The position numbers were made by a program, and so were the translations under genes. A stretch of 64,000 bases of DNA, from the NCBI GenBank assembly GCA_947624745.1, contig CANQLR010000008.1, forward strand, positions 1,480 through 65,479, written 5' to 3'. Shown here piece by piece: positions 1,244 through 10,554 of the stretch. Source of the stretch: an uncultured Clostridia bacterium. Its GTDB lineage: Bacteria; Bacillota; Clostridia; Oscillospirales; Ruminococcaceae. A model generated the notes under the pieces. The model worked only from the letters and a program-made list of their open reading frames with translations, was not told the origin of the DNA and did no database searches. Position 1 is the stretch's first letter. Each line of letters begins with the position of its first letter.

Positions 1244-1320
<77 letters not shown>

Positions 1321-1447: not shown

Positions 1448-2857
1448 CTATTTTTTATTGTCCGATTTTTGATTAAAAATCATATCTGAAATAATATCGC
1501 TCGACTGTGCGTCGGATTCTTTGATGATATGAGCGTATATATCGGTGGTGGTGCTGGTCTTTGAATGACCGAGTCTCTTTGATACAGACACGATGTCTTT
1601 GCCGCTGTTGATGAGTATTGACGCCATCGTGTGCCGAAAAGCGTGAGGATTGATATGCGGCAGTCCGTGCTTTTCAGAAAACTTCCTGAGCCACGCAGTT
1701 ATACTGTCAGGAATCATAGGTGTACCGTCGTCCTTTGTAAAACAATATCCGGTCTCCTTCCACCTGTCGCCATTATTGCGTTTAAGGTCATCGTACCAGT
1801 CCCTATACTCAGATAAGAGCTTCATTGTGTGCTCGGGCACTTTTACATATCGCACTGAGCTTTCGGTCTTGGTGGTGTCTTCATAAATGCCCCTCTTTGA
1901 GCTATACAGCAAATTGCTATCAATTTTTATTATGCTGTTTTCAAAATCTACCCTATCCCATTTCAAGCCCATTATTTCGCCTCGTCTGCAACCTGTAACT
2001 ATCAGCAATTCGGTGATAGCTCGCCATTTTATAGGCTCAGTTTCTAAGGCGTCCATAATCCTGCTTATATCCTCCGGCTGAAAATAGTTCACTTCCTTGC
2101 GAGAGCTTTTAGGCGGAGAAGCTTTGTCGGCAGCGTTGTACGGAACGAGCATTTCCTTTTCGGCTTGTGCGAGGATAGTGTGAATCAGCCTATGATGCTC
2201 CAAAATGGTCTTTGATGAAAGCGTAGTTTTATCTGCGCTCTCAACATCGAACCATTCAGAAAAATCCAGCCCAAGACATTCGCAGAGTTTTTTCGCTGTA
2301 GATAGATTTACAGCCTTATTTTGGCACATGGCTCCTATCGTTGACGCAGCAAGCCCGCTAAATTCGGAGACCTTAGCCTTTGAAAGATTGTTCTTTTTGA
2401 GCAGATCGCTAATGCTTTTCTTTGCGACAGCTTTAGACGAGAATGACGCCACTCCGTCTTCGGACAGATTGTCATAGAGGACATTTAGGTGCTGAGGACG
2501 TATGTCAGAAATCCTGATATTACCTATAGCGAGATTGATTCTTTCAAGAAGCTCTCTGTATCTCTCAATCGTTCTGAACTTGGCACCGGATTTGGTTTTG
2601 ACCTTAAGCACATAATCAGCGTACTCGGCGAACGTTATCTTGTCAACCTGATACCCGCTTTCAATGCTTCTTTCAAAGTCATAGGCAACCTTTTCAACAG
2701 CTTTTTGCAGTTGGTTTTCGGTCATCTTTTTATCAGGAACCCAAGTCATATATTTTCTTATCTGCTTGCCGTTGATGTCTTTTCCTGCGGAAACAGTGAT
2801 AAGAAAAGAAACCTTGTTTTTTCCGTCGATTCGTTTAATGCTTGCCGTCTTAGTCAC
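1448..2857 (-). CDS. int: Tyrosine-type site-specific integrase
   Basis: 469 aa. Catalytic motifs are TGCRRGE (Arg), HAFRHT (HxxR) and LGHSKTSTTTDIYAHI (His/Tyr). The N-terminus resembles an arm-binding domain. The GTG start overlaps the upstream XRE gene stop by 8 nt. Confidence 0.92.
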   Translation of the reverse strand: MTKTASIKRIDGKNKVSFLITVSAGKDINGKQIRKYMTWVPDKKMTENQLQKAVEKVAYDFERSIESGYQVDKITFAEYADYVLKVKTKSGAKFRTIERYRELLERINLAIGNIRISDIRPQHLNVLYDNLSEDGVASFSSKAVAKKSISDLLKKNNLSKAKVSEFSGLAASTIGAMCQNKAVNLSTAKKLCECLGLDFSEWFDVESADKTTLSSKTILEHHRLIHTILAQAEKEMLVPYNAADKASPPKSSRKEVNYFQPEDISRIMDALETEPIKWRAITELLIVTGCRRGEIMGLKWDRVDFENSIIKIDSNLLYSSKRGIYEDTTKTESSVRYVKVPEHTMKLLSEYRDWYDDLKRNNGDRWKETGYCFTKDDGTPMIPDSITAWLRKFSEKHGLPHINPHAFRHTMASILINSGKDIVSVSKRLGHSKTSTTTDIYAHIIKESDAQSSDIISDMIFNQKSDNKK

Positions 2858-3437
2858 CCTCTATCTCATAGTTGGAAATAAAATCATCGAGAAACCGCAT
2901 TATCTCTTGAGCAGCTCCCATTTCATAGAAGCGTATAGCCTCAGAATAATCAGCGAACAGTTCCCGGTCACTTTCGTCAATCTCCCCGGATTTCAGAGCT
3001 GAAATCTTGGAGAGGTAAATATCGATCATTCCGGCAATTCTCAGGTCAGAGATTAGTGCGGAATAAAGTTTGATATACTGCTCGGCATACTCAGACATCA
3101 CAGGAGTGCCATGTGCGCTTGCATATCGAAGATTCCTGAGTCTGTCAATAGCCTGTTGGTCAAGACCCAACTCGGAATATACGTCGGTGTCTACCCTGCG
3201 CTTGTTGGAATACTCCCCCACCAGATAGCCGAAGTCGCAGTCAAACAGTTCACACATTTTCAGCAAATCATATAGTGTGGGACTTGATTCCCCTTTTTCC
3301 CATTTGCGGACAGTCTGCCGCGTAGTGTTCAATTCTTCGGCAAGTCTTTCAGCGTCTTTCCAGCCTTTGTGTTTTCTTTCGGCTTCTATTATTTTTCCTA
3401 TGTCTTTTGCTTTGTCTGCGCTCAAAATGTTACCCAT
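2850..3437 (-). CDS. XRE-family HTH regulator with an uncharacterised C-terminal domain (candidate island repressor)
   Basis: 195 aa with a Cro/CI-type HTH (LAEELNTTRQTVRKWEKGESSPTLYDLLKMCELFDCDFGYLVGE). It is co-oriented with int, overlaps it, and is divergent from the xis-like gene. Confidence 0.8.
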   Translation of the reverse strand: MGNILSADKAKDIGKIIEAERKHKGWKDAERLAEELNTTRQTVRKWEKGESSPTLYDLLKMCELFDCDFGYLVGEYSNKRRVDTDVYSELGLDQQAIDRLRNLRYASAHGTPVMSEYAEQYIKLYSALISDLRIAGMIDIYLSKISALKSGEIDESDRELFADYSEAIRFYEMGAAQEIMRFLDDFISNYEIEGD

Positions 3438-3579
3438 TTTAACAACGTCCTTTATCGCGGCTTATCTTATGTTACAAATATCGTCTTTACTTTCACAGGA
3501 AAATTGAGTAGAATTAAATTAAAGAATTTTAAGTTAAAAATACCGATTGGTTATTTTCAGCTTAATAGGAGGTTATATT

Positions 3580-3813
3580 ATGAGAATGAGAACTCTCAAC
3601 GAAGCATTCAAGTACATTCAGGACAACGACCCGGAAACCTGTCTGACTAAATCAGCTCTACGGCGTCTGGTCACAACCGGAAAGCTGCCGTCAGTCAAGG
3701 TGGGTACAAAGTACCTCATTTCTTTAGAGATACTTGAGTCAACCCTTAAGAGTGGCTTTTCGGTCCAAAAAGCACCGGAACCGCAGGGCAAGATAAGACC
3801 CATAAACATCTGA
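3580..3813 (+). CDS. xis: Excisionase-family / MerR-like small DNA-binding protein
   Basis: 77 aa from ATG 3580 with a TAGGAGG RBS 7 nt upstream. The motif LTKSALRRLVTTGKLPSVKVGTKYLISLEILE is typical of excisionase-type HTH proteins. Confidence 0.7.
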   Translation: MRMRTLNEAFKYIQDNDPETCLTKSALRRLVTTGKLPSVKVGTKYLISLEILESTLKSGFSVQKAPEPQGKIRPINI

Positions 3814-3828
3814 GAGCGAAAGCGTGAT

Positions 3829-5071
3829 TTAATCACGCTTTTCTTTTTCTGCCATCTCGTGGCAGTCAAGAACGAATTTCTCCACCTGCTCGATGAGCTT
3901 GTCCCTGTCTTGCAACGCAAGAGAAACGTTGATGTAATAGCTTCTGTTTGTATGGAAAAACGGCTCTCTGTTTCTCTGGTCCTTCAACATCGGAATTAGA
4001 GATTTGCAGAAATCTTTAGCAGGAGCAGAACTCAGTCCGAATCTTTCAAAATCATTTATTACCCGCGAAGGAATGAAATAAAAGTCAGACTGCTCATTCC
4101 AAATTGATAGACCGAGCAGCGTATAGCTTTTTCCATTCGGAAGTGAAAACCTGAACTGAAGCTCGGTTGGAGCCATAGAGATGTAAATTCCATTTATTTG
4201 CTCCAAATCATAAACCAACTCGGTCACTTCGTCAGCGTCATATCCTCCATTATCCGCAAACCGAGAAATAAGCTCTCTGCGAGATAAGATGGGCTTAGAG
4301 TGCTTTTCGGAAGCTTCAGATATAATCACCGGTTCAGGGGAAAAGATATTGCGCTCGATCACATCGGTTCTGCTCGTGATGTGGGGCACAATAATCCTCC
4401 GACCTCCGTCTTCGTAAACCTCAACCTCGGCAAGAGCAAGGTTAAACGCCATATTTGCGTTGCTCTTAAGAAAGTCCGAAATCTCCTGAATCCCGGTCCT
4501 TATTCCGTCGCCGACAATCATAAGCAGAAAGTTTGCTTTGGAGAGGTTAGAATTTATGCTGTCATAGAAGTCAGCCTCGTCTTCCTCAGAAACAAGCTTC
4601 TTTTCTTTCAAGTATTCAAATATGGTAATGTTTACCCCCCCCCCCCGCAAAATTGTCAAAATATCCCTGAGCTATTTTGTCGAGTTTTTCTGCGTCCCAT
4701 TTTTGGACCTCTTTGGCGTAGTCGATTATTTGGGCGATAACGGTCCTTCGCGCTTCCTGATTCCTGAAGAGCTTTGTTTCGACAATGACAATCATTCCGG
4801 ACGGAGTTATATAGAGGTTGTCGATATATCCGGTGTTTTCTCCGGAGCCTACGGCGACCTCCCTGCCTATGCAAATCAAAGGAGTATAATCCCCTCCAAG
4901 CTGCGAGGTCGGAATGATTTCTGGGTACTTCTCTATAAGCTCCTGTAGCCAGAGTTCGTCAAAAGAGCTTGCTGATTCCTTATTCGTAAAAGGAACGCGC
5001 TTAAGCTTTACAGATTCTCCGTTTTCGGTCAAAAGGAAAACATCATGAGTAGATTTTTCGTTTGAAATCAT
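3829..5071 (-). pseudogene. PD-(D/E)xK nuclease-fold protein (NucS / DUF4263-like N-terminal core) with a ~270-aa uncharacterised C-terminal region. The reading frame is broken at a G12 tract.
   Basis: ORFs 4616-5071 and 3829-4659 overlap at the homopolymer. The N-terminal part has GYIDNLYITPSGMIVIVETKLFRNQEARRTVIAQIIDYA (D...ExK...Q..Y). Removing one G reads ...FDNFAGGGVNITIFEYL... as a single ORF of about 413 aa. Confidence 0.7.
4635..4646 (-). repeat. Homopolymeric tract: C12 on the plus strand, G12 in the coding sense
   Basis: Twelve consecutive C at 4635-4646, exactly at the frame break of the nuclease-fold gene. Confidence 0.95.
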
Positions 5072-5077
5072 AGTGAA

Positions 5078-5404
5078 TTATCCCTTGTACTTCGCGAGAA
5101 CAGCGTGTACAACTCTCCTATCGTCTTCGTTAGCCAAAGAGTACAAATTAGCTATTTCCTGCACGTCCTTCGGCATTACGTCAAACTGGTCACCGTTCAC
5201 TCCAAGAAGCCAGTCGATAGAAATGCCAAAGTGCTCGGCTATCTTTACGACGTAAGGAAGATCGGGCACCCTTGTTCCTGCAAGATAGCGCGACATCGTA
5301 ACCGGCGAGATTTCTATCTCCTCACTGAAGTCTTTTATGGTCATTCCCCTGCCCTCAAAAAGTCTGCGAAGTCTTTCACGAAACACGCTGTAATCAAAAG
5401 TCAT
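5078..5404 (-). CDS. XRE-family (CI-like) HTH regulator, first gene of the nuclease operon
   Basis: 108 aa with the HTH MTIKDFSEEIEISPVTMSRYLAGTRVPDLPYVVKIAEHFGISIDWLLG. Its stop is 6 nt before the nuclease-fold gene start. Confidence 0.8.
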   Translation of the reverse strand: MTFDYSVFRERLRRLFEGRGMTIKDFSEEIEISPVTMSRYLAGTRVPDLPYVVKIAEHFGISIDWLLGVNGDQFDVMPKDVQEIANLYSLANEDDRRVVHAVLAKYKG

Positions 5405-5523
5405 AATACAACCTCCTGAACAATTAGACTATATACGGTTTTATTTTAGCATATTTGAATTTGTTTTTCAACGAAAATTTTGAAAAAACACGAAAAAAAT
5501 TATAAAATCCAAGGTCAAAACAC

Positions 5524-5552
5524 TTGACAAATACCAGTTGGTATGGTAGAAT
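5524..5552 (+). promoter_or_regulatory. Promoter with an embedded inverted-repeat operator, for the cro-like gene
   Basis: TTGACA (5524-5529), a 17-nt spacer, then an extended -10 TGgTAGAAT (5544-5552). The spacer contains ATACCA-GT-TGGTAT. Confidence 0.55.
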
Positions 5553-5596
5553 AAACATATGGTATTTATACTCTCAAAGAAAAAGGAAGTGAAAAA

Positions 5597-5830
5597 ATGG
5601 AGAGAAAAGATTATAACGGCGTGAGAGCCGCGAGATGCGGGTACAACTACAGCCAAAAGGAAGTAGCTGATATTCTCGGAATAGATGTCAGGACCTATCA
5701 GTACAAGGAAAGCGGACGCGGTAAATGGAATAACAAAGAAATAGCCGCCCTCAGTAATCTTTTCAATTTTAGTATTTCTGAGATAAACCGGTATTTTTAT
5801 GACGGCATTCTACCAATCGGCAACGAGTAA
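5597..5830 (+). CDS. Small XRE-family (Cro-like) HTH protein
   Basis: 77 aa with the HTH YSQKEVADILGIDVRTYQYKESGRGKW and an AAGGAAG RBS. It is divergent from the 5078-5404 XRE gene. Confidence 0.75.
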   Translation: MERKDYNGVRAARCGYNYSQKEVADILGIDVRTYQYKESGRGKWNNKEIAALSNLFNFSISEINRYFYDGILPIGNE

Positions 5831-5891
5831 CTGAATAGTTGGTTATCTCGTTCCGCTGTTATAATCATACCTCGGAAAGGAGCAAGAATCA

Positions 5892-6389
5892 ATGTCGAGA
5901 AACGTAACAAAAGCTATGGGAAATAGATATTGCCAAGCACGTTTAGAGGCAGCAAAGTATAACGAAAAGCTACTTGTCAGGTCAAGCGCAGTTGAATTTC
6001 TCCCCGGCGTAACTGAGGACAGCTTGAAAAAATATGAGTTGGACATAAACAGACCTCCGAACACAGTGGTAGCTCTTATGGCAGACGCTTACAGTGCTCC
6101 CGATCTCACAGCTTGGTATTGTGCCAACGAATGCCCCTTAGGAAAGGACAGAAGAGAAATTCCAAAAATGCCGGCTGAAAGAGCACTGATAAGACTTCAA
6201 AATTCGGCTGAGGACATGGACGATATAATCCGGTCCATCTCTCAAATCATGGACGACGGAGAAATCACAGGTAACGAGAAAGAGGAAATAGCAAAGCTCA
6301 GTGCGGAGCTCAAAGAATGCGGTCACAGAATCAGCGAAATCACCGCCATTCTTGATAAGGCTTCGAAGCGAGGAGAATTTGACAGGTAA
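5892..6389 (+). CDS. Hypothetical phage/island regulatory-type protein (possible degenerate HTH N-terminus, acidic helical C-terminus)
   Basis: 165 aa with an AAGGAG RBS and non-repetitive composition. No catalytic motif was recognised. Confidence 0.6.
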   Translation: MSRNVTKAMGNRYCQARLEAAKYNEKLLVRSSAVEFLPGVTEDSLKKYELDINRPPNTVVALMADAYSAPDLTAWYCANECPLGKDRREIPKMPAERALIRLQNSAEDMDDIIRSISQIMDDGEITGNEKEEIAKLSAELKECGHRISEITAILDKASKRGEFDR

Positions 6390-6401
6390 GGAGAGATAGA
6401 T

Positions 6402-6620
6402 ATGTGCGCAGAATGCGGAAGCACTCCGTGTCTTAGCAGTTGCCCTAACAGAGTGGATAAGCCGATTGGCGTCTGCCCTGTTTGTAATGAGAAGATTCTT
6501 GATTATGAGCCGTTCTACGATTTTGACGGTGAGAAATATCATGATGTTTGTTTTCAGGACAACGCGGTCAGTATCCTGATGGATATGGGAGCCAGATTCT
6601 ATGAATGTTCGGAAGAGTGA
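6402..6620 (+). CDS. Small Cys-rich (zinc-ribbon-like) protein
   Basis: 72 aa with CAEC...C...C and CPVC pairs and an AAGGAGAG RBS. Confidence 0.6.
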   Translation: MCAECGSTPCLSSCPNRVDKPIGVCPVCNEKILDYEPFYDFDGEKYHDVCFQDNAVSILMDMGARFYECSEE

Positions 6621-6627
6621 GGAAAAG

Positions 6628-6947
6628 ATGAGCGAAAAAACGGTCACAAAGATTCCGGAATTTAAGGGATTCGACTTTGATGAAGAAAAACATCTGTATA
6701 CGAGGATAACGAAACCGGGTCATCTTTAAGGCTTGAAAGTTTAGAAGAAAATGAACGAACAGAGTACATAGTCGTTTTCAGGGACTATCTCTCAGGCGAA
6801 GAAACAAATAAAAAATATGCTCAGTTCAACGACGCTACAGCAAGGTTTGAAAGCATGGTCAACTTCATGCTGAAAAATCGAGGATCATATACTCGGAAAA
6901 TGTGTGAGTTTGTTATGAATCTGAAGCTTATCGGCGTTGCGGATTAA
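6628..6947 (+). pseudogene. Possible frameshifted small gene: a 33-aa ORF continuing in another frame to 6947
   Basis: ATG 6628 has a GAGGAAAA RBS and stops at 6727-6729. An open frame without a start codon runs on (SSLRLESLEENERTEYIVVFRDYLSGEE...LIGVAD) to a stop at 6945-6947. Confidence 0.3.
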
Positions 6948-7111
6948 GCCACTTGTTATCTATGGCGAGAAAATGTAAAATAATATTACGGAAAAACAAA
7001 AGCAGATGCTTAGTGCTCTCATCGGTCCGTACAGCTCCGCAACCTTAGTGGAAGAAGAATTGAGAAGCTCAGGTGCCAGAGTGCTCATATAAACATCATG
7101 GAGGTCTAAAA

Positions 7112-7339
7112 ATGGACAAAAGAATCCTCAAAGCGTTATCTGAATTATCTGAGGCAGACGCAATCATGTATGCGGCGGACATTGCGTACATTCCGACATT
7201 ATCACCCGATTCTTGCGATGAAGAGATTTCCGAAAGAGCTATGAATGCTTTTTACGCTGTATGGAAAAAGGTGAAAGAGGCTCAGAATATCCTTGACGGA
7301 TTGACTAAGGGATTGAACTTTGAAGAGAATGTAGATTGA
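7112..7339 (+). CDS. Hypothetical small protein
   Basis: 75 aa from ATG 7112 with a GGAGG RBS 7 nt upstream, followed by a terminator. Confidence 0.55.
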   Translation: MDKRILKALSELSEADAIMYAADIAYIPTLSPDSCDEEISERAMNAFYAVWKKVKEAQNILDGLTKGLNFEENVD

Positions 7340-7352
7340 CAATCGAGGGCAA

Positions 7353-7380
7353 AAAAGACCGGTTTCACCCGGTCTTTTTA
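7353..7380 (+). terminator. Rho-independent terminator
   Basis: AAAAGACCGG-TTTCAC-CCGGTCTTTT followed by a T-run. Confidence 0.75.
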
Positions 7381-7480
7381 TATATAATCTTTCAAGAAAG
7401 AGAATCGGAATATAATTTTTCAAAAAAGTGTTTACTTTTTTGGAAAATGTGGTATAATATAAACAGAAGGAGGCGATAAG

Positions 7481-8527
7481 ATGTTAGGAAAGAATTTGAA
7501 GTATTATAGGCTCAAGAACGGTTTGTCTAAAGCAAAGCTTGCGGAAAAAGTAGGCGTTTCTCCTATGTCGATTACTCACTATGAAAACGATGAAAGAAAG
7601 CCCTCGATGGATATCCTCAAAGCTTTGGCAACTGCCCTGAATGTCAAAGTTTCTGACTTCTTGGCAAACGAGGGCGAAATACGTTCTCTTACTTATGGCG
7701 AGTTCCGCAAGGGGAGCAAGCTGTCTAAGAATCAGCAGGAGTATATCTATGCTTCATTGGAAGAGTATATGAACAGGTTTTATTATGCGGTCAGAATTTT
7801 GGGTGGAAAAGTTATGCCTACTCCCCCGGATTCTCATGGAGTACGGTTATCTTCTAATGCTGAAGATGACGCAAAAGCTCTTAGAAAATATCTTCATATA
7901 TCCGAAATAGGTCCGGTAGGAAATCTTGTTGAAATGCTTGAGAATATAGGTATTCTTGTATATTTTATTGATATTGACAACGATGCTTTTTCAGGAATAA
8001 ACGGACAGGTCAATGGAAGACCATACATTGCAGTAAACGGCAATATGAGTCCGGAACGTATTCGTTCAACCATAGTTCACGAGATGGCACACTTTATTTT
8101 TGAGTGGCCCGAAGATATGGAGGACGATAGAATTGAAGATAGAGCAACCGCAATAAGCGGAGCTTTCCTCTTGCCGGAAGAAGACGCTAAAAGAGAGCTT
8201 GGTCTCAAGCGGCGCGCTATTTCGAATGATATGCAGCTAATTTGCAAGGAGTACGGAATATCTATGTTTATGCTTGCAAAAAGGGCAGTTCTGTGCGGTA
8301 TAGTTTCAGACAATGCCGCAAAGAATTTCTATATTTTAGCAAGTCAGAACGGATGGAGAAAAAGCGAGCCTGTTAGGATTCCGAAAGAAGAACCCACGCT
8401 GTTTTCTCAGCTTATATTCAGAGCGGTTAGTGAAAGCGAAATATCCATTCAGAAAGGTGCAGAGCTGTTGAAAAAACCATATACCTATGTTGCTGAACAG
8501 TGCTTTGCAACGAAGGGAGAACTATGA
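7481..8527 (+). CDS. XRE HTH fused to an ImmA/IrrE-family zinc metallopeptidase domain
   Basis: 348 aa. The N-terminal HTH is LSKAKLAEKVGVSPMSITHYENDERKPSMDILKALATAL, and the HExxH motif is in TIVHEMAHFIF. An extended -10 TGTGGTATAAT lies upstream. Confidence 0.85.
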   Translation: MLGKNLKYYRLKNGLSKAKLAEKVGVSPMSITHYENDERKPSMDILKALATALNVKVSDFLANEGEIRSLTYGEFRKGSKLSKNQQEYIYASLEEYMNRFYYAVRILGGKVMPTPPDSHGVRLSSNAEDDAKALRKYLHISEIGPVGNLVEMLENIGILVYFIDIDNDAFSGINGQVNGRPYIAVNGNMSPERIRSTIVHEMAHFIFEWPEDMEDDRIEDRATAISGAFLLPEEDAKRELGLKRRAISNDMQLICKEYGISMFMLAKRAVLCGIVSDNAAKNFYILASQNGWRKSEPVRIPKEEPTLFSQLIFRAVSESEISIQKGAELLKKPYTYVAEQCFATKGEL

Positions 8528-9018
8528 AATATATCAGCAGTGACACAAATGTTTGGATTGATTTTTTGACTATCAACCGCCTTGAGCTGCCTTTTAAGCT
8601 CCCATACATATATTTGATGAATGAAGATGCCGTAGAAGATGAAATGCTCAATCCTACCAATCTTGGAGATAAGCTCGTAGAATTAGGGCTTGAAAAAACA
8701 TCTCTGACAGAGGACGAGTTCTTTTTAGCTGAAAAGTTGAGCGAAAAATATTTAAAGCTTTCCAGATATGACTGTATAGCGTTGGCAATCGCAAAAATCA
8801 GAAAAATTGAACTTCTTACAGGAGACAAAGCGCTCAGAAAAGCTGCCAATTCAGAAAACGTAAAAGTTACAGGCACAATAGGTATCTTAGACAGACTGTT
8901 AAAGGGACAGTATATTGATCAAGATGAGTATATACGTTGCTTAGATAGTCTTTCAGAACATAACGGTAAGATAGTACGTCTACCGGAAAAAGAATTAAAA
9001 AAGCGGCTGAAAAAGTGA
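8524..9018 (+). CDS. PIN-like (DUF3368/DUF4411-type) predicted nuclease, partner of the ImmA-XRE protein
   Basis: 164 aa. The ATG overlaps the upstream stop (ATGA). The N-terminus has SDTNVWIDF (acidic PIN-type start). The C-terminal ELLTGDKALRKAANSENVKVTGTIGILDRLLK resembles DUF3368 proteins. Confidence 0.6.
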   Translation: MKYISSDTNVWIDFLTINRLELPFKLPYIYLMNEDAVEDEMLNPTNLGDKLVELGLEKTSLTEDEFFLAEKLSEKYLKLSRYDCIALAIAKIRKIELLTGDKALRKAANSENVKVTGTIGILDRLLKGQYIDQDEYIRCLDSLSEHNGKIVRLPEKELKKRLKK

Positions 9019-9072
9019 TATTGATGTTATATCACATAGGCATTTTTTCAAGTTAATTTCGTTAGCAATATT

Positions 9073-9096
9073 TTTTACCGCATTTTTACCGCACGA
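9073..9096 (+). repeat. 24-bp repeat containing two TACCGCA half-sites (candidate integrase arm-type site, right arm)
   Basis: Identical to 1387-1410 and lies about 117 bp inside attR. Confidence 0.7.
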
Positions 9097-9212
9097 GGAT
9101 ATGAAAAAATGCGGTAAAATGCGAAAAGGTATGAAAAGACTTCGATTAAGAAACGGCGTATTACAGCGATTTGAGCACAATTATGGGAGAAGACGAAAAG
9201 GAAAAATCTCAA

Positions 9213-9258
9213 CTCATAACCCGGAGGTCGTTGGTTCAAGTCCTTCCCCCGCAACCAA
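9213..9258 (+). repeat. attR core: displaced 3' half of tRNA-fMet, not a functional gene
   Basis: Identical 46-bp copy of 1275-1320. It lacks the acceptor 5' strand and the D arm. Confidence 0.9.
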
Positions 9259-9951: not shown

Positions 9952-10554
9952 TTATTTCTCTCCCCTCCTCCACCCCTCTGCTCTATACCTAAACGTCGAA
10001 AGCGGCATATTACAGGCCTTTGCGGCGGCGGTGCCGGTGATGTCGCCCGCCTGCCAGCTCTCGACCGCGGCGGTAAAATTCTCGGGGAGGGGCTCGGGAG
10101 GCCTGCCGAAACGCACACCGCGGGCCTTTGCGGCAGCGATGCCCTCGGCCTGGCGCTGGCGAATGTTCGTGCGCTCGTTCTCGGCGACAAAGCTAAGTAC
10201 CTGAAGCACGATGTCGCTCAAAAACGTGCCGACGAGGTCCTTGCCGCGCCGGGTGTCCAGAAGCGGCATGTCGAGAACGCAGATGTCGACCCCCTTGTCC
10301 TTCGTGATGACCCGCCACTGCCGCTGGATCTCCTCGTAATTTCGGCCGAGGCGGTCGATGCTTTTTATATAGAGCAGGTCGTCGCGCCGCAGCCTGCGAA
10401 GCAGCCTTTTGTAGTTCGGGCGATCGAAATCCTTGCCCGACTGTTTATCAATGTAAAGGTTTTCAGCGGGAACGCGCGCCTCGCTCATCGCGATAAGCTG
10501 CCTGTCCTCGTTCTGCTCCCTTGTGCTGACGCGAATGTAACCGTAGATCTCCAT
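9952..10554 (-). CDS. Small serine recombinase (resolvase/invertase family)
   Basis: 200 aa. YGYIRVSTREQNEDRQ contains the catalytic Ser motif, and there is a C-terminal HTH (ITGTAAAKACNMPLSTFRYR). GGAGGGAG RBS. Confidence 0.9.
   Translation of the reverse strand: MEIYGYIRVSTREQNEDRQLIAMSEARVPAENLYIDKQSGKDFDRPNYKRLLRRLRRDDLLYIKSIDRLGRNYEEIQRQWRVITKDKGVDICVLDMPLLDTRRGKDLVGTFLSDIVLQVLSFVAENERTNIRQRQAEGIAAAKARGVRFGRPPEPLPENFTAAVESWQAGDITGTAAAKACNMPLSTFRYRAEGWRRGEK

Follow-up and report, generated by a model that had tools for sequence, protein, structure and literature searches.

A hypervariable poly-G tract as a probable ON/OFF switch of a nuclease-like gene on a mobile element of uncultured gut Clostridia

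A poly-G tract divides a nuclease-like gene

We have identified a hypervariable poly-G tract inside a nuclease-like gene carried by an integrative element of an uncultured Clostridia bacterium from the rabbit gut (Ruminococcaceae; GenBank assembly GCA_947624745.1). The gene lies in a 64,000-nt stretch of contig CANQLR010000008.1 (positions 1,480 to 65,479), called the window below; coordinates given without a contig or locus name refer to it. Closely related alleles of this gene carry the tract in eight different states, which either keep the two parts of the gene in one reading frame (ON) or end translation prematurely (OFF), and the tract is probably a working ON/OFF (contingency) switch.

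In the window the tract appears as C12 on the plus strand at 4635-4646 (G12 in the coding sense, on the minus strand), in the plus-strand context GTTTA-C12-GCAAAA. It is the only homopolymer of at least 8 nt in the whole 64 kb; dinucleotide-preserving shuffles of the window contained on average 0.02 runs of such length, with one shuffle in 100 having any. The tract sits at the overlap of two open reading frames (ORFs) of the minus strand, 4616-5071 and 3829-4659. The first encodes 151 aa with the PD-(D/E)xK core (E71, D84 and E98-x-K100) and ends in ..FDNFAGGGGKHYHI (C-terminus FAGGGGKHYHI). The second, 276 aa from a TTG start, comprises the remainder of the N-terminal domain with its GDGIR motif, then a disordered linker and, at the C-terminus, an alpha/beta domain.

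The tract length was varied in silico. With G11 and G14 the two frames merge into a single ORF of 413 and 414 aa, respectively, reading ..FDNFAGGGVNITIFEYLKEK..; taken together, G8, G11, G14 and G17 give products of 412-415 aa, and the other lengths lead to a stop within 0-6 codons, G10 and G13 immediately. The whole gene thus spans 3829-5071 (minus strand) and encodes 413 aa if the tract is G11, but is split as assembled, with G12. The tract codes for the Gly run of a predicted surface loop that connects two helices of the N-terminal domain at approximately residues 141-149. A sequence-only reading of the window, made earlier, had placed G12 at the overlap of the two ORFs and had claimed that G11 would join them into one protein; both statements hold, and all its coordinates and translations proved right.

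Tract length among related alleles

Tract lengths were read from assembled contigs, that is, from ENA assemblies and from Logan contigs of public runs, compared with the window. The alleles compared are 93-97% identical to the window at the nucleotide level and show tracts of 6, 8, 9, 10, 11, 12 and 17 Gs as well as an interrupted form, G5AG6. ON alleles have either G8 (L029 and L030; 412-aa protein P0129; 3 contigs) or G11 (L027 and L028; 413-aa protein P0127; 6 contigs), and G17 (X10) is in frame as well. The OFF states are G6 (L034 and L035), G9 (L036; run X19), G10 (L037; runs X20, X21 and X11), G12 (the window) and G5AG6 (L031-L033 and X12; 7 contigs, depth up to 84x). Four low-depth runs (X13-X16) added no further tract lengths. 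The alleles come from two independent rabbit-gut studies, one with ERR/ERZ accessions (related genomes are labelled 'Lapin') and the other with DRR accessions; G5AG6 was recovered in both an ERR run and a DRR run. At the protein level, the 90% cluster of P0003, the best relative of the joined protein, contains both full-length and truncated products.

The closest comparison is that of L036 with L037, which align over 6,699 nt with no mismatches and with a single 1-nt gap, the tract itself (G9 versus G10). Similarly, three runs of one sample yielded contigs of 8,964 nt (G9) and 8,965 nt (G10, twice) at ~21x depth. Since both L036 and L037 and the runs of the same sample differ at the tract alone, the tract mutates faster than its surroundings.

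The tract is therefore real, being neither a one-off assembly slip nor a fixed lesion of a pseudogene, and ON and OFF lengths both occur in nature. The comparison of tract length across homologous islands, which the sequence-only reading had called for, revealed neither uniform G11 nor uniform G12, the two outcomes that it had set against its own proposal. That proposal of slipped-strand ON/OFF switching, for which it had given a sequencing error as the alternative, gains support from the eight tract states, in frame and out of frame, in near-identical alleles of two studies. Two further elements of that reading stand as well: the nuclease fold, borne out by invariant catalytic residues and fold matches, and the mobile island, borne out by 46-bp repeats at a tRNA-Met gene (both described below).

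An origin of the tract as poly-G junk of two-colour sequencing chemistry was considered and rejected, since the flanks on either side align in register with their homologues and both studies show the tract.

A maintained switch or a decaying gene

The case for a maintained gene comes from the coding sequence on the two sides of the tract. The ratio of nonsynonymous to synonymous substitution rates (dN/dS), estimated by the Nei-Gojobori method for all allele pairs, is 0.02-0.10 before the tract, except for a value of 0.28 in one pair differing at two sites. After the tract it is 0.04-0.16 in every pair, pairs of tract-bearing alleles included. The ON frame downstream of the tract has no stop in any of the eight alleles (8/8), nor does it contain a further frameshift, while dS between tract-bearing alleles reaches 0.4.

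Several observations weigh against a maintained switch. OFF states are found in five of the eight allele backgrounds (5/8), a share that fits gene loss as well as bet-hedging. The most frequently recovered allele, G5AG6, present in both studies, is locked OFF by the G-to-A interruption. In the G9/G10 lineage (L036:2589-3828 and L037:2459-3699) a GAA-to-TAA change makes codon 32 a nonsense codon and thereby kills the gene. As the alleles are mosaic, their low dN/dS could have been imported from tract-less alleles via recombination. All the lengths derive from assembled contigs, which hint at a mixture within a sample or within a clone; polymerase chain reaction (PCR) stutter and assembly may miscount G9-G12 by one. 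Window-type contigs of the best-matching sample, S1, stop within the tract in four runs, at 4637-4643, and start again at 4655 or 4673. Runs of nine or more Gs number from 0 to hundreds among related assemblies, some of them being contig-end junk. As to function, a role in defence rests on distant similarity and context; the whole protein matched no family in Pfam, NCBIfam or PHROGs, and a PDB sequence search returned nothing significant.

Some of these observations would also be expected under non-adaptive decay. The tract would then be an accidental mutational hotspot in an accessory gene under loss, with the OFF alleles as early pseudogenes and the ON alleles as lineages either not hit or hit twice. 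In line with this, 60 related genomes, among them 36 of the same genus, lack the nuclease gene, and the existence of tract-less alleles means that the tract is not required for function. Nevertheless, we find decay unlikely. The tract persists on backgrounds separated by a dS of up to 0.4 in the downstream part, and it is there that the frame has stayed open at low dN/dS even between tract-bearing alleles. In-frame states make up about one-third of the total and lie on both sides of OFF lengths (8, 11 and 17), which argues for repeated gains and losses rather than one-way decay. Moreover, several substitutions are needed to turn the ancestral GGAAGAGAGG into a pure G run. A side observation on the G9/G10 lineage is that the tract still differs between its otherwise identical contigs despite the nonsense mutation at codon 32.

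A different question is whether G12 is the true length in the genome of the window. The dominant length could be G11, or another in-frame length, miscounted by the assembler; the gene would then be intact here and its split a short-read artefact. Related records do resemble short-read metagenome assemblies made with SPAdes (contig names of the form NODE_x_length_cov), the Logan contigs of the best-matching runs (sample S1, X1-X4; ~3-15x) never span the tract, and the closely related G11 allele is represented by 6 contigs. On the other hand, G6, G8, G5AG6 and G17 recur in independent assemblies and cannot be +/-1 errors of G11, so that OFF lengths are real in the allele group, and no evidence specifically favours G11 over G12 in the source sample. 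We judge an artefactual split improbable, and the same goes for the specific case of a true G11 miscounted by one, which would leave the conclusion on the site unchanged.

The breaks in the S1 contigs were also considered as a signal of heterogeneity. This was rejected, as the same S1 runs break likewise at three other G9/G10 tracts of the genome; because such data cross G runs poorly, contig ends at long G runs are not readable as heterogeneity. In L038 (G000:C20:5500-11500), Logan contigs of X1 and X2 (~10x) break at every G9/G10 tract examined.

Finally, expression despite the frameshift, with slippage of RNA polymerase or ribosomal frameshifting restoring the frame in a fraction of products and the tract tuning dosage, is very improbable: long homopolymers are known slippage sites and the downstream frame is open in all OFF alleles, but variation at the DNA level alone suffices to explain the open frame, and the efficient transcriptional slippage known so far uses A/T runs, G/C runs being poor substrates.

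The predicted nuclease

The residues E71, D84 and E98-x-K100, followed by RNQE..R, are invariant in an alignment of 29 sequences and make a PD-(D/E)xK nuclease signature; the nuclease core occupies residues ~60-125 of 413. The best fold neighbours are Escherichia coli SduA (8ps4, E 9e-3), NucS/EndoMS (2vld and 5gke) and HamA (8vxy), all with high probability (0.8-0.98 for SduA and NucS/EndoMS) and weak E-values. The N-terminal 230 residues match the PADLOC PDC-S11 profile PDLC04916 with E-values from 2e-11 to 1e-13, though at profile positions ~21-193 of 358 only. In Pfam, the search for DUF4263 gave no match, and NERD alone appeared below threshold (E 0.05).

A disordered linker (residues 234-256) precedes the C-terminal domain (window 3832-4308, minus strand). 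This ~155-aa alpha/beta domain was modelled with a mean predicted local distance difference test score (pLDDT) of 86 and a predicted template modelling score of 0.82, and it has an invariant NGGYD motif. No PDB entry matches the model at E<=0.001, nor does any EVE/PUA domain; the top hits, to YjbR/DUF419, are weak (template modelling score 0.39-0.54).

On these grounds the gene product is a predicted NucS/Shedu-like PD-(D/E)xK nuclease, distantly related to PDC-S11 (Madara) but probably not a member of that family, although by analogy it would work like Madara in outline, with a nuclease and a sensor domain. Since the OFF products break off at the tract and so lose half of the N-terminal domain, they are very likely inactive. 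The family is an uncharacterised candidate for prophage-encoded immunity.

Origin of the tract and mosaic alleles

With the joined protein as query, 829 relatives were recovered, nearly all of them unsplit and 397-413 aa long. The best one, P0003 (94% identity, 413 aa), is without the tract, having DNSFGREANIT where the window has DNFAGGG(G)VNIT; its DNA at the tract site reads TCCTTTGGAAGAGAGGCAAAT. In the 29-sequence alignment the tract site belongs to the stretch where members of the family differ most; an invariant Tyr immediately precedes the site, and an invariant Gly lies within it. In an AlphaFold model (pLDDT 83.5) it forms a loop between helices 127-142 and 150-156. Intact natural proteins with GG or GGG at this site do exist. 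More distant relatives have G-Q-A at the tract site; the ancestral state is therefore tract-less, and the G run is derived. In related loci totalling ~509 kb, a set that takes in 46 loci from distant homologues, G/C runs of at least 8 nt occur solely at the tract site in the rabbit-gut allele group; the tract is thus a lineage-specific gain.

One tract-less allele is especially informative. L043 (3001-4242) matches the window exactly over 4.8 kb except in two places: at 4630-4665 it has a patch of 36 bp without the tract, the sole difference within the gene, and at ~3483-3645 it has seven changes. Another locus, L008, alternates window-like and L001-like segments. Such mosaics suggest an exchange of very short gene-conversion patches between co-resident island alleles.

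Two related candidates were set aside. A recombinant patch of ~100 bp in S1 contigs was not used, as it may be a bubble-popping chimera and the SPAdes contig L043 provides the cleaner 36-bp patch. A diversity-generating retroelement as the source of the divergent patch was dropped, since the changes are not confined to adenines and the vicinity contains no reverse transcriptase. Regarding L008 (CANQGQ010000038.1), this 7-kb contig carries a Clostridia-type island but is binned in a genome labelled Alistipes sp., probably a binning error.

The element and the repressor-nuclease pair

Directly upstream of the nuclease gene lies a gene for a 108-aa XRE/CI-like helix-turn-helix (HTH) repressor (5078-5404, minus strand), which matches PHROG transcriptional repressor families with E 1e-16. 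Its stop codon is located 6 nt before the ATG of the nuclease gene, and a ribosome-binding site, AAGGGA, overlaps its end. A promoter-like site, TTGAAA-17-TAAAAT with a TG (5443-5471, minus strand; a consensus match only), precedes the pair, whose two genes would be co-transcribed. A second site, TTGACA-17-TAGAAT (5524-5552, plus strand; likewise a consensus match), points in the opposite direction, towards a gene for a 77-aa Cro-like HTH protein (5597-5830, plus strand; PHROG match). A hairpin with T and A tails covers the stop codon of the nuclease gene (3818-3842) and resembles a bidirectional terminator.

Further along are genes for a 195-aa HTH regulator (2850-3437, minus strand) and for a 469-aa tyrosine integrase (1448-2857, minus strand; PHROG match), which overlap. 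The 3' half of the tRNA-Met gene (1244-1319, plus strand) belongs to the left copy of a 46-bp direct repeat (1275-1320, plus strand; putative attL). The right copy (9213-9258, plus strand; putative attR) is 100% identical to it, and the island between the repeats has a length of ~7.9 kb. In L001, L027 and L036, related elements have this 46-mer at their flanks.

The order of repressor, nuclease and integrase is found in every related contig, some of which join it to RecT and other phage genes. Homologues with 40-50% identity, which come from Oscillospiraceae, Acutalibacteraceae and other Clostridia, retain the layout, with an ORF of 108-114 aa directly upstream of the nuclease gene, and so do 28 viral contigs of IMG/VR.

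In phage lambda, the exclusion genes rexA and rexB are co-transcribed with the repressor gene cI. The nuclease gene occupies, by analogy, the position of such repressor-linked exclusion genes: it directly follows a CI-like repressor gene, a divergent Cro-like gene lies opposite, an integrase gene is close and expression is to be expected in the resident state. RexAB differs in that it consists of two proteins which depolarise the membrane and includes neither a nuclease nor a repeat switch, and the exclusion role of the present gene is one that we infer. Given its ImmA-like position, the nuclease may alternatively have a role in the element's own regulation.

Some minor features of these loci deserve mention. 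In L009-L024 and L044-L068 (36-50% identity) the gene always follows a same-strand ORF of 108-114 aa and has divergent small ORFs upstream; after the gene there are usually two more ORFs, of ~120 aa and of ~570-640 aa, the latter perhaps coding for a large serine recombinase. The lysogeny-module layout is thus conserved. The nuclease locus tends towards the contig end in the IMG/VR contigs. In the window (5405-9258) the Cro-like gene, a PHROG-6499 regulator and small ORFs stand between the repressor gene and an ImmA-HTH/PIN pair; in L001 (5713-8000) the ImmA-HTH/PIN pair adjoins the repressor gene directly. In L001 another integrase element is inserted in tandem at this tRNA-Met site, and L027 runs on into RecT and other phage genes.

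Proposed mechanism and known systems

We propose the following scheme. Replication slippage, the within-clone rate and reversibility of which we infer, would add Gs to the tract or remove them. Lengths of 8, 11, 14 and 17 would keep the frame and place 2-5 glycines in a tolerant surface loop, while lengths of 6, 9, 10, 12 and 13 would end translation within 0-6 codons, in the middle of the N-terminal PD-(D/E)xK domain. The nuclease gene would be the second cistron after the CI-like repressor gene, in a lysogeny-type module of a tRNA-Met integrative element (a larger prophage in some relatives), and would most likely encode a nuclease for defence or superinfection exclusion that is produced in the resident state of the element. 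The adaptive value of the tract would presumably lie in letting a population hold both expressing and non-expressing cells for a costly or self-toxic function. A broader idea, which we offer tentatively as possible rather than probable, is that temperate elements of gut Clostridia bet-hedge their own superinfection-exclusion nuclease and that the tract is passed between island alleles, or erased from them, by short gene conversion. Polysaccharide loci of the host appear to use the same device.

The nearest precedent is the Pgl system (BREX type 2) of Streptomyces coelicolor, in which a G tract in pglX phase-varies phage resistance (Sumby & Smith 2003, as cited in PMC4365076). The two cases share a poly-G run within the coding sequence of a phage-defence gene (here a presumed one) and a potentially toxic product. 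They differ in that pglX encodes a methyltransferase of a four-gene chromosomal actinomycete system with switching frequencies measured in culture, whereas here a single nuclease-like gene resides on a tRNA-Met integrative element of uncultured gut Clostridia and the variation is seen as population polymorphism only.

Phase-variable restriction-modification genes of Types I and III (phasevarions) and the poly-G contingency loci of Campylobacter, Neisseria and Haemophilus (PMC11868660; PMC6321876) have in common with the present tract an intragenic repeat, frame-dependent ON/OFF states and many lengths among close relatives. A further likeness is that the G9-G10 tracts of the host are concentrated in surface-polysaccharide genes. 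As differences, there is no methyltransferase here and no epigenetic regulon is to be expected, MutS and MutL are intact, and the organism is a metagenome-assembled commensal of the Clostridia, not a mucosal pathogen.

In domain plan the protein resembles Madara (PDC-S11) of E. coli ECOR34, a modification-dependent anti-phage nuclease with a NucS-like N-terminal domain and an EVE-like C-terminal domain (bioRxiv 10.64898/2026.09.05.749240). Both are single-gene systems with an N-terminal NucS-like PD-(D/E)xK nuclease, a linker and a C-terminal putative sensor domain. Nevertheless, the C-terminal domain here is without an EVE/PUA-like match, and the profile match covers the first half only; furthermore, Madara is regulated by H-NS rather than by a repeat tract and is not linked to a repressor.

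In structure, the nuclease domain comes closest to Shedu (SduA, DUF4263) and Hachiman HamA. SduA has its nuclease at the C-terminus, however, and the present protein at the N-terminus; moreover, the DUF4263 match is lacking, and there is no HamB-like helicase partner.

The proposed mechanism is thus that of a classical slipped-strand contingency switch; what is new is the setting, an uncharacterised repressor-linked NucS-like single-gene system on a temperate element. That repeats can switch phage-defence genes is well established for a few pathogens and for the Pgl system of Streptomyces, but to our knowledge repeat-based switching has hardly been documented in the uncultured Clostridia that dominate the guts of herbivores and humans. 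Here public metagenomes alone reveal eight ON/OFF tract states for a defence-like nuclease on a mobile element. Frameshifted 'pseudogenes' at long G runs in metagenome-assembled genomes may therefore be live switches and should be neither silently repaired nor discarded; the defence repertoires predicted from such genomes can vary within a strain.

Long G/C runs in the host genome

G/C runs in the 2.57-Mb genome (G000) are bimodal in length, with 33 of 7 nt, 6 of 8, 12 of 9 and 9 of 10, plus one each of 11, 12 and 22. Long runs lie, among other places, at C20:6935-6943, 8189-8198 and 10212-10221; C32:17020, 22390 and 23306; C33:5165; C44:10966; C47:11698; and C76:640 and 4312. The genes with long runs include polysaccharide-modification genes, encoding Acyl_transf_3 proteins (two), GNAT, two paralogous Bac_transf proteins with the run at the same codon and DegT aminotransferases (two, at gene ends), and a gene for Peptidase_C39_2; further long runs occur immediately upstream of two ResIII/HA helicase paralogues. 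Long runs in polysaccharide genes and at matching positions of paralogues are also a trait of organisms known for such switches. With soft support, these genes may represent a host set of switchable genes. Loss of mismatch repair was considered as a cause and rejected, as mutS and mutL are both present and open. The longest run of the genome, G22 at C1:113394-113415, falls in a region without a convincing ORF.

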